A stretch of DNA of 64,000 bases from positions 864,001 through 928,000 of the forward strand of contig CBDBLV010000005.1 in assembly GCA_965207225.1 (NCBI GenBank). Reading direction: 5' to 3'. The DNA is from Dehalococcoidia bacterium. Lineage in GTDB: Bacteria; Chloroflexota; Dehalococcoidia; Plut-88900. The position numbers and the translations under genes were made by a program. A model generated the notes under the pieces. That model was not told the DNA's origin, ran no database searches, and saw nothing but the letters and a program-made list of their open reading frames with translations. Position 1 is the first letter of the stretch; the number at the start of each line of letters is the position of its first letter. Shown in pieces: positions 16,115 to 50,006 of the stretch.

Positions 16115-16206
16115 TGGCGGAGGGAGTGGGATTCGAACCCACGATCCAGGTCTCCCCAGATAAGCGCTTAGCAGGCGCCCGCACTAGGCCACTATGCGAT
16201 CCCTCC
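16115..16206 (-). tRNA. tRNA-Ser(GCT)
   Basis: GGAGGGA/TCCCTCC acceptor stem, G discriminator, CCA encoded, anticodon loop CT-GCT-AA, long variable arm, GGTTCGAATCC T-arm. Confidence 0.97.
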
Positions 16207-45680: not shown

Positions 45681-46685
45681 CTAGTCTTCCCAGACTTCCC
45701 GCAGCAGCCGCACCCAGTTTCCGCCCAGTATCTTCCTGATGTCGTCCTCGCCGTACCCTCGATTCAAGAGCTCCAGGGCGATGTTGCCGAATCGGTCGGG
45801 GGTCTCCATACCTTTGGGATGAAGCAGGGGAGAGGGGTAGGGCACCGGGCGGGGCTTTATCTTGGTGCCCTGCTGGGAGAACAGCCAGTCGAAGAAGGAG
45901 TTTGACTGGTCCTGCGTGTAGTCCGTTCCTATGGCGACGTGGTCTATGCCGACCCTGTCCACTAGGTCGTCGATCGCGTCCACATAGTCCTGCAGGGTCG
46001 ACTCGAAGCTCTTGGGAAGGAAGGGCGGAAAGGCATTGGCCCCGATGACTCCGCCCTTCTCAGCGATGAGCTTCAGGGCATCATCAGTCTTGTTGCGGAC
46101 GTGATCGAAGAAGGAGCGGGCGTTAGCATGGGTCGCAGACACGGGCTTGTCCGAAAGTTCGGCCGTCTCCAGGGTGGTCCGGTCCCCGACGTGGGACAGG
46201 TCAATAAGAATCCCCAACCTGTTCATCTCCCTCACCGCATCCTCCCCGAAATTGCTCAAGCCCTCGTCGGTGCGCTCCCAGCAGCCGTTGCCCAGCAGGT
46301 TCCTTTCGTTATAGGTGACCTGGATGACCCTCACGCCGAGATCGTGAAAAAGCTCAAGCCTGTCTAGCTTGTTCTCGATGGGAGAAGCGTTCTGGAACCC
46401 GAGAATTATGCCGACGGTTCCGTCTTCCTTGGCCTTGAAGATATCGTCAACCGACTTGACCTGGGAGAGGGTTGCAGGCATTTCTCGGAAACGCCGTTTC
46501 CAACCTGCCACATGGTCCATCGTCTCCTCGAACCCCTCCCAAACGGCGATGGTGGCGTTTATGGCGGTGAGGTTGCCGTTGCTCAGGCTCTGGTAGACCG
46601 CAGGGCTCTCCCAGTTGCTGATATTCAGCCCGTCAATGGCGATGGCATCCTGGTAGATAGACTGGGCGCGTTCCTCAATGCTCAC
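45681..46685 (-). CDS. Membrane dipeptidase (M19) family protein
   Basis: GFQN, QVTYN, IDLSH, THAN, IGTD. Confidence 0.92.
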   Translation of the reverse strand: MSIEERAQSIYQDAIAIDGLNISNWESPAVYQSLSNGNLTAINATIAVWEGFEETMDHVAGWKRRFREMPATLSQVKSVDDIFKAKEDGTVGIILGFQNASPIENKLDRLELFHDLGVRVIQVTYNERNLLGNGCWERTDEGLSNFGEDAVREMNRLGILIDLSHVGDRTTLETAELSDKPVSATHANARSFFDHVRNKTDDALKLIAEKGGVIGANAFPPFLPKSFESTLQDYVDAIDDLVDRVGIDHVAIGTDYTQDQSNSFFDWLFSQQGTKIKPRPVPYPSPLLHPKGMETPDRFGNIALELLNRGYGEDDIRKILGGNWVRLLREVWED

Positions 46686-46789
46686 TTGCCCTCTCCTTAT
46701 TAAGCGGGGTACCGGATCGCGTAGGGCGCTAGTTTACCACTGGCCTGCATGATCTAAGTCGCATGTAAGTTTGCCAAAGCCCCCTTATC

Positions 46790-47275
46790 TCCCATTCCGA
46801 TGCCCTGGGAGGAATCTAGGACTTGCCCACTCACGTCCCTCCCCTCCCGGTAGGGGCAATCCCTTGTGGTTGCCCTGGTGTGGGGCCGCTCGTGCTGAGG
46901 CCCTCGAAGTATGAGCGGGGGGAGGCCCACATCCTGCCGACCCGTCGCATGCCTCCATAGCCAATCACCCCCCTCACTGTCATTCCGAACGGCAGTGAGG
47001 AATCTGGGGAAGGGAGGTGCAGGTCTCCCATCCCACCCGAGCATTCACTACCCCTCTTCCTCCCCCCTCCCCCCTATCTCCGTCATTCCAGACTCCGATC
47101 GGGCATCCATCCCCGGTGTGGGCTGGGCCACTCGTGCTGAGACCCTCTCAAGCATGCCCCGAGTCCCTCGAGGGGTATGAGCGGGGGGCGGCCCACCCCT
47201 TGCCGACCCGTCGCATGCCTCCATAACCAACCACCCTCCTCACTGTCATTCCGATGCCCCGCGAGGGATCTCCAG
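46790..47275. repeat. REP/BIME-like mosaic with an imperfect tandem duplication
   Basis: GTAGGGGC palindrome (~46850); GCTCGTGCTGAG..TATGAGCGG units (~46880, ~47125); TCATTCC-type units x4; TGCCGACCCGTCGCATGCCTCCATA at 46935 and 47201. Confidence 0.8.
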
Positions 47276-47342
47276 CACCCCTCCCTAAGCCCACCCTACT
47301 CATTGCCACTCTCACCCCTTCCTGGCATCCCCCCTTGGTAAC

Positions 47343-47383
47343 GAATTATCGGGAATGCTGCTTGGCAGCATTCCCGATAATTC
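47343..47383. repeat. Perfect 19-bp inverted repeat
   Basis: GAATTATCGGGAATGCTGC-ttg-GCAGCATTCCCGATAATTC. Confidence 0.9.
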
Positions 47384-47508
47384 AATAAAACAGGGCGGGC
47401 GGGTGGGAACCAATTTAATCCGGGGGTAGGTGGAGGGAGGGGGATCAAGGGGGTGAGGGTTACCTTGGGGGACCGGGGGATATTCCCCCCATAAATGTGA
47501 CCTACCCC

Positions 47509-47537
47509 TTGACATGCAAACACTTGAGCCTTATATT
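47509..47537 (+). promoter_or_regulatory. Near-consensus sigma70 promoter in a non-coding region
   Basis: TTGACA, 17 bp, TATATT. Confidence 0.7.
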
Positions 47538-47760
47538 TGTTCTAAGTCTAGACCCTACATCTACCTTAAGGAGGAACCGAAAACCCAGGGGAACAACCCC
47601 GGCGCCCGAGGGGACTCAACGCCCAAGCCCATCCCAATGCCTCTCCCCTCCCGTAGGGGCGACCGGCTGGTCGCCCTCCCTTGTGAGGCGAGCAGGTTGC
47701 GGCACAAGCGAAAGACGCCATCTCCTCCACCCCAGTCCCGACCCTTCCCCTGTCCCCCCA

Positions 47761-48219
47761 GGCGATGGAAAGACGCCCTGGAGCAACCCGACCTAAGGAG
47801 CGGAACGGGGTCGCCCGTAGCCGAGGACCGCTCGGCTCTCCGTCCGCTTCAGCAAATGAAACTGGGCAGACCGCCACTCCGGGTTCCTGGATACAGGCGG
47901 CGAACTGGAAACCCCGTACTCCTGCGTGGGGACATGACTCTGGACATTCCCCTTCCTGCATGTAGGTGCAGCGCAGCTAACCCGTTTATTGGAACCTGTG
48001 ACGGATGACGGACCCGTATGTCCGCCTACACAGCCAGATCTAGGCAGCGGCGGAGACACGTCCCCAGCCTTGGGACGCCTCCAAGCCGACACTAAAGATA
48101 GGGGCTTCTGCCGGCCGCGGTTCGACCGTCCAGTGAGGCGAGACCGGACTGACCGACCCTGTACGGCCGGGCCAGCGACACCCTACGGGGTCACCGCTCC
48201 AGGTGCGTCTTCCATCGCC
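47761..48219 (+). ncRNA. Candidate large structured non-coding RNA (~460 nt), family not recognised
   Basis: Closing helix of ~23 bp, ten or more internal helices, G-U pairs favour the + strand, C(UACG)G tetraloop, complementary loops GGTTCC/GGAACC. Confidence 0.65.
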
Positions 48220-48313
48220 AACCTCCTTCAACACAAACAAAATGCAAACCCAAACCCCACAACCGAACAACTTATCTTCCACCGCCATCCCAGATGTGCG
48301 GGGCCGGGTTCTC

Positions 48314-48605
48314 GTAGGGGCGACCGGCGGGTCGCACTCCCCGGTGCGGGGTGAGGATCCCCCTATGGTGCTGAGAAGCATCCCTTCCTTTCTACCCAGT
48401 ATTGAACTAGAGGCAGAGGTTGGCACTTCTGCGCCAACCTCTGCCTCTGTTCTTCTCTCCCCCTCTCCCTTAGGGCCTGTAAGGAAGAGGGGGACCAAGA
48501 GGGTGAGGGTGATCCCCGGTGTGGGGCCGCTCATGCTGAGGCTCTCGAAGTACGAGCGGGGGTGGCCCACACCCGACTGTCACATCTCGCCGGTCATCCC
48601 CGCCC
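48314..48605. repeat. Further REP-like units
   Basis: GTAGGGGCGACC..GGTCGC (also at ~47653) and GGTGTGGGGCCGCTCATGCTGAGGCTCTCGAAGTACGAGCGG (~48518). Confidence 0.75.
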
Positions 48606-48666
48606 ACCCCATGCCGTCCTCTCCTCCCTGCACCACGCAAAATCCCCAGCAATCCCTTTAGGCGTC

Positions 48667-48719
48667 GTTCAATCAAACCAGCTACGAGTTCAATCAACGT
48701 TCAATCAATGTTCAATCAA
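48667..48719. repeat. Four phased direct repeats GTTCAATCAA
   Basis: Exact copies at 48667, 48688, 48699, 48710. Confidence 0.9.
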
Positions 48720-48827
48720 ACCTCACCCCCACAACTGGTTCGGCTGCTAGCCTCTCGGACGAGAAAGGCCCTAGAATAGCGGCACGAACACCCGGCAGCA
48801 TATGACGGCACTCATGGGGAGGTGAGC

Positions 48828-50006
48828 ATGTACTCTTACCCGGAAATCGACTGGGACGGTCTGCGCCGGCACCGGACAGACAAGGTCTCCCAAGTTATGA
48901 GGGACGCCGACGTCGACGCCCTGGTTCTCATGGGCCACGACAACATCCGCTACGCCACCGACTTCGGAGTCTTTCTCATCTGCGAAGCCTACGACTGGTT
49001 TGCCGCAATAGTCACCCAGGAAGGCGAGGCCTCGCTCTACATTCCCTACGTGGACAAGGTGGTCGACAATCCAATGCCTGACTACCCTTGGATCACGGAA
49101 TTCGTCCCGACTCCGTCCTGGGTTTCCAGCATCAGCCAGGCCGAGATCTGGGTCGACATCCTGTCCCGCAAGCTGCGCAGCCTCAAGGCCCGACGCGTAG
49201 GCGTCGATGCAATGCCCTTCCAGCTTTGGGATGGCATGAAGAGGATGATGTCCGAGGCACTTTTCCTGGACGCGTACATGCCTCTGGCCATGGCCCGGCA
49301 GGTGAAGCATCCGGAAGAGGTAAAGCTGATCCGCTCCAGCGCCGAAATCGCTTCCGCAGGAGGTGAGGCTGGGCTGAAGGCCATGCAGGAAGGCGCCCTG
49401 GACTTCGAGGTGCTATCGGCCATAGATGGAACTATGCGGGCCCAGGGCGCCGAATTCATCACCCACAACGTTTGCATCAAGGGTGAGAGCCAGGTTACCG
49501 CTGGCTGGTTTCCAAAGGGCAGCAAGCTCGAGTCAGGCGGGACTATGGCCTTCGACTGGGGATGCTACGTGAAGGGCGGATACGGCTCCGATATGTGCCG
49601 GACAGGGTTTGCGGGTGAACCTCCTGCGCCCGTGCAAAAGGCATGGCAAGTGCTGATGGAGGCCCACCGGGCCACGGAGGCCGAGGCCCAACCCGGTGTC
49701 CGGGTGTCCCACCTTGACCGAACGGTAAACGACCACCTTGCCAGGTCGGGTTACCCGACCACGCCTTATTCCTTGGGACATGGTGTCGGGCTGAGGGCGT
49801 GTGAGCTCCCCATCATCTACCGCCCCGACATGATGATGGTGGATGCACAACTGGAAGAGGGAATGGTCATCTGTCTGGAGCCCGAGACCTCGGTGGAGGT
49901 CGGCGGCGAGACAGTCTTCGTCAAGGTCGAGGACATGTACGAAGTCACCGCTACGGGGCTAGACCGTCTCACCACCACCGGCTACACGCCCTATTGGGAT
50001 GATTAG
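48828..50006 (+). CDS. Xaa-Pro peptidase / creatinase (M24) family protein
   Basis: NIRYAT, SDMCRT, GHGVG, LEPE, KVED. Confidence 0.9.
   Translation: MYSYPEIDWDGLRRHRTDKVSQVMRDADVDALVLMGHDNIRYATDFGVFLICEAYDWFAAIVTQEGEASLYIPYVDKVVDNPMPDYPWITEFVPTPSWVSSISQAEIWVDILSRKLRSLKARRVGVDAMPFQLWDGMKRMMSEALFLDAYMPLAMARQVKHPEEVKLIRSSAEIASAGGEAGLKAMQEGALDFEVLSAIDGTMRAQGAEFITHNVCIKGESQVTAGWFPKGSKLESGGTMAFDWGCYVKGGYGSDMCRTGFAGEPPAPVQKAWQVLMEAHRATEAEAQPGVRVSHLDRTVNDHLARSGYPTTPYSLGHGVGLRACELPIIYRPDMMMVDAQLEEGMVICLEPETSVEVGGETVFVKVEDMYEVTATGLDRLTTTGYTPYWDD

Follow-up and report, generated by a model that had tools for sequence, protein, structure and literature searches.

The stretch of DNA analysed here, which we call the window, comprises 64,000 nucleotides (nt) from a Dehalococcoidia bacterium of the phylum Chloroflexota (GenBank assembly GCA_965207225.1, contig CBDBLV010000005.1, forward-strand positions 864,001 to 928,000). 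Between a gene for an M19 dipeptidase and a gene for an M24 peptidase it carries an element of 459 nt at 47761-48219 on the + strand, whose letters match those of a preliminary description, made from the sequence alone, that proposed a large non-coding RNA (ncRNA) in the size class of OLE, ROOL and GOLLD. The large size, the many helices, the lack of an Rfam match and the constraint on pairing all stand. However, the element is not a single ncRNA gene: it is the core, here named type A, of one unit in a modular superfamily that has about 41 cassettes in this genome and whose units turn over, or change core, at orthologous sites. The unit in the window is E1 (G000:C5:911,761), where G000 is the source genome (five contigs, 4.03 Mb), and G001-G008 are eight other species of the same uncultured Dehalococcoidia genus. 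Positions are those of the window, and features lie on the + strand unless stated otherwise.

The core, its chassis and the family

Folding, an inverted repeat, alignment and RNA-library contigs over 47771-48207 support the type-A core, which is closed by a stem. Its ends pair, as had been described: the 24-nt arms at 47761-47784 and 48196-48219 form an inverted repeat (I3) that is 75% complementary without gaps, and their duplex reaches -50.1 kcal/mol when a one-base bulge is allowed. The whole + strand core folds at -205.6 kcal/mol, compared with -181.0 +/- 6.5 kcal/mol for 100 shuffles (z -3.77), none of which equalled it. The preliminary description saw no signatures of RNase P, tmRNA, SRP, a cobalamin riboswitch or group I/II introns, and Rfam 15, whose models also cover OLE, ROOL, GOLLD, HEARO and riboswitches, agrees. 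At the gathering threshold the sole match in the whole window is a tRNA elsewhere, and at E<=10 over 47300-48700 the only match within the element is mir-1225 (E 9.4, chance-level), with the remaining matches in the flanks. The view that no credible open reading frame (ORF) overlaps the element also holds. Five overlapping ORFs (99-176 aa) have no Pfam match and the longest open frame switches strand or frame among 34 type-A copies, on which grounds coding potential was rejected; 13 of the 34 are stop-free across the full core in one frame, which we attribute to common descent and G+C content.

Conservation reaches beyond the core to a whole unit, which consists of a promoter, a leader with a Shine-Dalgarno (SD)-like site and a hairpin, the core and a tail. 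The consensus promoter noted upstream of E1 is of the sigma-70 type (TTGACA-17-TATATT, 47509-47537, 11/12 matches), with a predicted start near 47544, and is the sole promoter-like site in 47300-48800, where shuffles expect 0.3. Its flavour recurs at an equal upstream distance in other units. Three flavours occur across the units, and in all of them the predicted start coincides with a short palindrome, which in E1 reads as the operator-like 8-bp GTCTAGAC (47546-47553) and in the other flavours as GTTCGAAC or GTTCGATCGAAC. These palindromes look like operators, and the family would then be the regulon of a putative repressor. After some 25-45 nt, units carry AAGGAGGAACC with no start codon downstream. 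In E1 this SD-like AAGGAGG lies at 47568-47574, and it is kept in nearly all units (39 genome matches to the leader-1 motif). The leader hairpin of E1 (47586-47752, repeat D6) has the arms CAGGGGAA (47586-47593) and TTCCCCTG (47745-47752), which enclose blocks conserved among leaders and, at 47649-47688, an inserted REP-like hairpin, insertions of both kinds being typical of the family; other units have CAGGGAAG and CTTCCCTG as arms, a compensatory difference from E1. In each unit a short linker separates the leader hairpin from the core.

Throughout the family the core is closed by GGCGAUGGA...UCCAUCGCC, always beginning GGCGATGGA and ending TCCATCGCC. The tail that follows, at 48220-48271 in E1, is C/A-rich, G-poor (A 0.48, C 0.40, G 0.04) and rut-like; tails of this kind, approximately 50 nt long, occur family-wide, with a mean G of 0.09 and a mean C of 0.40 over 31 tails. 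Further downstream, at 48408-48459, there is a terminator-like hairpin with 17 bp in its stem and TTCTTCTCTC directly after it. This module is repeated in other units, where the variants have different stem sequences and T-runs. Both Rho and RNase J are encoded in G000, so that the roles proposed below for the chassis (a guard at the 5' end and a Rho-type tail) are at least possible.

A second type-A copy in G000 is 97% identical across all 459 nt, and elsewhere in that genome the same 21-24 nt ends flank quite different interiors. A motif search of G000 returned 42 clusters with at least two kinds of motif. Of these, 41 have a core, and the remaining one consists of a unit's promoter half, cut off by a 2.7-kb insertion. 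These 41 cores, 198-553 nt long, fall into 10 similarity groups of 14, 10, 5, 2, 2, 2, 2, 2, 1 and 1 copies, the E1 core and its twin making up one of the two-copy groups. All are closed by a stem of approximately 15-28 bp (-31 to -50 kcal/mol), and none of the 41 is inverted relative to the promoter. A search for empty leader-tail junctions, that is, a chassis without a core, gave no candidates. Rfam was also searched with 20 related loci, 13 from types A-G and 7 from types H-K (E<=0.1 or 0.05), without a match inside any core. Type-B cores carry two or three tandem modules of approximately 95 nt, and domain duplication seems common within cores. With a span of 0.5-0.9 kb each, the units make up an estimated 0.7% of the genome (41 units of approximately 0.7 kb). 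The split unit is of type F (G000:C1:66973-69689), and its leader is interrupted by approximately 2.7 kb with two - strand ORFs (264 and 526 aa), the sizes of which suggest an IS21-like element.

Base pairing and transcription

We aligned 34 distinct type-A cores from seven genomes, 6 of them long-form copies (G000 and G005) and 28 short-form copies (G001-G004 and G006). The short form, of approximately 400-410 nt, is without the 3' domain (48104-48195 in E1) and has an extra 5' hairpin. Among the short-form copies the mean identity is 92% in the core, compared with 53-70% in the leader and 52% in the tail. A curated structure of 80 pairs leaves 95.4% of the alignment cells paired, and sliding the partners by 1-3 columns reduces this to 37-50%. 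Between E1 and the 28 short-form copies, 6.7% of paired and 23.0% of unpaired columns differ (3.4-fold), and 265 of the 285 changes at paired columns (93%) retain a standard pair. For one representative copy the differences number 9/152 in paired and 32/164 in unpaired columns (Fisher p 3.5e-4). Classical covariation is scarce in type A because the sequences are very alike. RNAalifold on the 34 copies gave 92 pairs, 3 of them changing on both sides, and the doubly changed pairs of the curated structure are one kissing pair, described below, and pair 294:325. Double changes also occur in three other core types of G000, at 3/85, 9/94 and 8/141 predicted pairs. Judged from the alignment, base pairing in the type-A core is under constraint, for which covariation alone is weak support.

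Six of the helices listed in the preliminary description proved to be conserved. These are GGAGCGGA/TCCGCTTC (266/271 cells paired), AGCCGAG/CTCGGCT (237/238), CCGCC/GGCGG (166/170), CGGAC/GTCCG (169/170), CGTCCC/GGGACG (199/199) and the kissing pair GGTTCC/GGAACC. Four are not: GGCAGA/TCTGCC (120/204), TGTAGG/CCTACA (69/198), CCCCG/TGGGG (131/170) and CCGTT/GACGG, which in 28 copies has lost two of its five positions. The remaining two occur only in the six long-form copies, where CCGGCCG/CGGCCGG is invariant (42/42) and GGGTCG/CGACCC is paired in 28/36 cells, being broken in the four G005 copies. Two hairpin tips are free in sequence and length yet remain hairpins. One, read directly from the 34-copy alignment, is CUGCAU-GUAG-GUGCAG at 47956-47971, which is CUGUA...UACAG in the second copy; the other belongs to the inner hairpin of the 3' domain, the stem of which is kept.

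One case of covariation is a long-range contact. The loop GGUUCC (47882-47887) pairs with GGAACC (47991-47996), as a kissing loop or pseudoknot, in 204 of 204 cells. The contact reads GGUUCC/GGAACC in G000 and G005 and GGCUCC/GGAGCC in other species. At its third pair 26 copies have C-G, 6 have U-A and the other 2 have U-G, and both changes are also present in an RNA run (X20). Of the two kissing contacts that had been proposed, this one stands and covaries; the other, GGGTCG with CGACCC, is the long-form pairing that is broken in G005.

RNA data came from four metatranscriptome runs in three studies, each run matching a small share of the stretch, and were examined over 47300-48900. Contigs cover the core in all four runs. 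The longest is a 430-nt contig over 47771-48207 (approximately 92% identity, depth 8.7), and others cover 47781-47932, 47938-48118, 47859-48055 and 47782-47960. Short, deeper contigs lie where the leader ends and the stem begins, a region common to all units. No RNA contig covers 47300-47677 or 48218-48433; because these flanks are specific to the locus and the RNA may come from relatives, the gaps carry no information on transcript ends. The contigs contain no joints that would indicate circles or splicing, for which contigs are a poor test. Taken together, the RNA contigs give moderate support for transcription of the core.

A transcribed structured RNA is the best account of the core because of the constraint on pairing, the covarying contact, the fixed orientation, the unit's own promoter and terminator, and the RNA contigs. 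The reading that we favour, at about even confidence, is that of a trans-acting structured RNA from a recombining cassette family.

Distribution and turnover

The family is found in all nine genomes of the genus. The type-A query matched all eight other species, seven in the core and G007 by the shared 22-nt ends only. It matched none of three other genera of the family, and two of 29 other genomes of the class gave chance-level matches (E 0.003 and 0.0085). With at most three mismatches, the sequence that joins core end to tail occurs 5-38 times in each of the nine genus genomes and once, with three mismatches, among 392 other genomes of the class, a weak match that is probably chance (reversed control, 0). 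Type-A copies number 2 in G000, 4 in G005 and at least 9, 10, 12, 7 and 5 in G001, G002, G003, G004 and G006, respectively; G007 has none and G008 only one shortened piece. Among the matches listed from 185,579 species genomes, 27 loci outside Dehalococcoidia metagenome-assembled genomes were without the paired 3' end and were rejected as chance. A scan of metagenome contigs with a core 19-mer gave one chance match, inside a coding region, and a scan of viral contigs gave none. Parts of the stretch are found in runs labelled as sponge or coral metagenomes.

Comparison of orthologous sites reveals a turnover of units. In G001, G002 and G007 the E1 site is empty, the same two peptidase genes lying 119-138 bp apart. 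In G008 the flanking genes are 96% identical and the 1.5-kb gap between them holds a unit with a different core (L171, orthologous to window 46586-48921), made of two tandem modules of approximately 200 nt and ending GGACCTTCCACCGCC. At the site of the twin copy G008 has a unit with a type-B 5' end and G005 has 236 bp. One type-B unit common to G000 and G008, and missing in G005 and G007, lies directly upstream of a gene's own promoter, which stands alone in the latter two genomes. At another type-B site in G008 the leader is kept and the core is gone, and a type-H unit is common to G000 and G008 and absent from G001 and G002. A type-A remnant in G008 (L028) is without promoter, leader and 5' half, and its ortholog in G000 (L003, G000:C3:216515-216588) is down to 74 nt. 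With orthologous sites empty, occupied or replaced, units arise, are exchanged and disappear over the time in which species of the genus diverge. The nearest relative of 22 of the 34 type-A copies lies in the same genome. This behaviour is consistent with a family spreading and recombining by way of the flanks that its units have in common.

Much of it would also be expected of a non-autonomous repeat of the selfish kind: a large, composite element related to miniature inverted-repeat transposable elements (MITEs), BOX or Correia elements, which bears a promoter and hence is transcribed. Its fold would be a by-product of inverted repeats or would help only in the repeat's own spread, without a function for the cell. 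We regard this as the main rival reading, though less likely than not. The approximately 41 units in G000, the range of type A from none to at least 12 copies per genome, the empty and replaced E1 sites, the unit set before a native promoter, the 5'-shortened remnant that has decayed further in G000, the clustering of nearest neighbours within genomes and the density of other repeat families in the surrounding intergenic DNA are all in its favour. However, the leader and tail are conserved outside the inverted termini, unlike in a MITE bounded by terminal inverted repeats, the interior is better conserved than the flanks, interior changes keep the pairing and the tertiary contact covaries. No target-site duplication and no empty leader-tail site was found, nor, in G000, a longer transposase-bearing element with the same termini. 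The preliminary description had named many copies with target-site duplications as the mark of such an element. The copies are there; the duplications could not be shown, the inserted blocks being mosaics of several repeats with junctions too mixed to read them. To our knowledge, many-helix cores of 200-550 nt are also far larger than known elements of this kind.

Downstream genes

The next downstream ORF is co-oriented in 27 of the 41 units. Tails could be scored for 34 of the 41, on crude ORF calls made without a gene finder. In the class of tails ending ...CACAACTGAATA, a co-oriented ORF of at least 150 aa comes next in 12 of 13 units, and in 11 of them its start lies 86-230 nt past the core. 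In the ...AAAATGCAAACC...GAACA class, to which E1 belongs, a co-oriented ORF comes next in 9 of 15 units, and 10 of the 15 have a terminator-module motif within 420 nt. The genes are unrelated and include M24 peptidases and genes of the amidohydrolase, radical SAM, catalase-peroxidase type, MoaA, FolD, NusA and LeuS kinds; the search for a shared downstream gene family returned only small clusters of short, probably spurious ORFs.

This bears on whether the units are cis-acting expression modules, each a portable promoter with a long structured 5' untranslated region that drives, stabilises or insulates the gene downstream. The frequent co-orientation, above all in the ...CACAACTGAATA class, and the C/A-rich unstructured tail just upstream of those genes speak for such a role. 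We nevertheless judge it unlikely. E1 is in the other tail class, with a terminator-like hairpin 190 nt past the core and approximately 600 nt of repeats before the next gene; the downstream genes are functionally unrelated; in the sole case examined the downstream gene retains its own promoter; the ORF calls are crude; and a core of 300-550 nt with a tertiary contact would exceed what a stabiliser needs. A riboswitch or other cis-regulatory leader class was rejected on two of these points, the unrelated functions and the terminator-like hairpin after E1. A retron ncRNA was likewise rejected, because no reverse transcriptase (RT) gene adjoins E1, the neighbours of which are the M19 and M24 peptidase genes. 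G000 does contain four RT-domain frames of 586, 586, 652 and 641 aa (G000:C2:158087-158773; C5:1548409-1549095, 1553608-1554405 and 1671488-1672288), none of which adjoins an examined unit. Two of them, with identical scores and lengths, may be copies of one retroelement.

Neighbouring features

The 2.1-kb intergenic region around E1 (46700-47500 and 48272-48750) is a mosaic of at least eight further repeat families (D1-D8), parts of which recur dozens of times per genome across the genus. Among these families are REP-like hairpins GGGGCGACC...GGTCGCCC, at 47649-47688 and 48310-48349. Approximately 130 nt upstream of the promoter, at 47343-47383, lies a relatively A+T-rich inverted repeat with perfectly matching 19-bp arms around a loop of 3 nt (GAATTATCGGGAATGCTGC / GCAGCATTCCCGATAATTC). 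Tandem decamers of the GTTCAATCAA type occupy 48668-48735 and end CCCCACAACTGG; the module is also present at the orthologous G008 site and after two type-D units in G000. The tRNA found by Rfam (89 nt, 16118-16206, - strand, 54 bits) has a long variable arm and the anticodon loop CU-GCU-AA, and is probably tRNA-Ser(GCU).

Interpretation

If the core is a trans-acting RNA, transcription would start at the promoter at 47509-47537, cross the 217-nt leader, the 459-nt core and the C/A-rich tail, and probably end at the terminator-like hairpin at 48408-48459. The SD-like AAGGAGG would protect the 5' end, Rho or 3' exonucleases would act on the unstructured tail, and the closing stem would either cap a mature RNA of approximately 440-460 nt or be a processing site. 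The folded core RNA would then be trans-acting, with a probable protein partner that binds the closing stem common to the family. The exchange of cores and the gain and loss of cassettes are explained most simply by recombination between the shared flanks. The shared chassis suggests a common biogenesis, and the roles given to its parts are drawn by analogy with known systems. Architecture, copy structure, pairing constraint, distribution, insertion polymorphism and presence in RNA libraries were observed directly; transcript ends, processing, the roles of the flanks and action in trans are inferred.

Very improbable in our view is a DNA-level structure (a cruciform, or single-stranded hairpins for replication or recombination) or a - strand RNA, for which the more stable - strand fold and the presence of the mostly Watson-Crick helices on both strands can be cited, whereas promoters and T-run hairpins lie on the + strand in every unit seen, cores have a single orientation relative to both, a strand-symmetric structure (predicted with G-U pairs forbidden) holds 99 G-U cells compared with 51 A-C cells on the + strand, and the stem GGUUCG/CGGACU of the E1 3' domain pairs only through G-U on that strand. 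The - strand, which folding energy alone favours, was set aside because promoter, terminator, core orientation and G-U counts all indicate the + strand.

Several observations weigh against a trans-acting RNA. The - strand of the type-A core folds with a z of -5.11, and the alifold energy is -252 for the - strand compared with -241 for the + strand. Only 2 of the 80 curated pairs change on both sides, each probably through a single event, and most pairs are invariant. The rate comparison used a structure taken from the very alignment that it was compared with, so that the fit is inflated. The RNA contigs are unstranded, could include carried-over DNA and are silent on transcript ends. No partner protein and no phenotype is known for the family, which is confined to one genus. 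Lastly, the variable and high copy number, empty sites, core replacement and shortened remnants are as in a selfish repeat.

A broader proposal, which we put forward tentatively and think rather doubtful, is that this sponge- and coral-associated genus maintains a collection of ornate RNAs, all expressed and processed from one type of chassis (a regulated promoter, a 5' guard, a closing stem common to all and a Rho-type tail), with cores and domains swapped by recombination. Such a collection would be the RNA counterpart of a gene-cassette system, with at least 10 undescribed folds, among which there may be ribozymes, RNA assemblies or protein sponges. Were the cores functional, one genus would yield approximately 10 large RNA folds that are new, with numerous natural variants of each available to structural studies, and an organisation of RNA genes (a shared chassis with exchangeable cores) that we did not find described. 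If they are selfish, the family is an unusually large, promoter-bearing and structure-constrained class of repeat that reshapes intergenic regions and places promoters beside housekeeping genes, nusA and leuS among them. In either case the units would escape Rfam-based annotation because Rfam has no matching family.

Neither the large ornate RNAs nor the BOX and Correia repeats are known to join a shared expression chassis with many exchangeable multi-helix cores, and searches of the literature turned up no account of such elements. Evidence for function at the RNA level is moderate.

Comparison with known systems

Parts of the chassis recall known 5' and 3' elements. STAB-SD is the 5' stabiliser of the Bacillus cryIIIA mRNA, and the units would resemble it in having an SD-like sequence near the 5' end without a start codon, in a genome that encodes RNase J; any likeness would be one of function only. 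The rut-like role suggested for the tail is similarly drawn by analogy from known systems.

With MITEs and REPIN/RAYT systems the family shares inverted termini, many copies and presence/absence polymorphism. Unlike in either, conserved sequence extends beyond the termini, and in contrast to MITEs a leader and a tail are common to units with different cores and no duplicated target lies directly outside the termini. A strict search of G000 for a transposase-bearing element with the same termini found no terminus pair more than 553 nt apart, and a loose search returned only chance matches inside an IS21-like transposase gene (a recurring spacing of 1442 nt). Classification as a MITE, which the inverted repeats and copy polymorphism do fit, failed where conserved sequence continues outside the termini.

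The closest known systems include large ornate bacterial RNAs such as OLE, ROOL and GOLLD (cryo-EM paper, PMC12286853). Like these, the type-A core has several hundred nt, many helices, conserved long-range contacts, no ORF and no assigned function, and it appears to use a loop-loop contact of the kind found in those RNAs. Unlike them, it matches no covariance model, is multi-copy, insertion-polymorphic and confined to one genus, and shares its chassis in a family with at least 10 unrelated cores.

The pneumococcal BOX, Neisseria Correia and enterobacterial ERIC repeats are transcribed intergenic elements of approximately 100-300 bp that contain simple hairpins. The cassettes are like them in being multi-copy, intergenic and modular (BOX consists of A, B and C boxes), with inverted termini that fold into an RNA stem, and both can carry promoters and adjoin unrelated genes. 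The cassettes differ in that their units span 0.5-0.9 kb and bring a promoter and, in many cases, a terminator of their own, and in their many-helix cores, in which a tertiary contact covaries and the interior is more conserved than the flanks. In form the family comes closest to the large ornate RNAs, and in its behaviour in the genome to BOX and Correia repeats.

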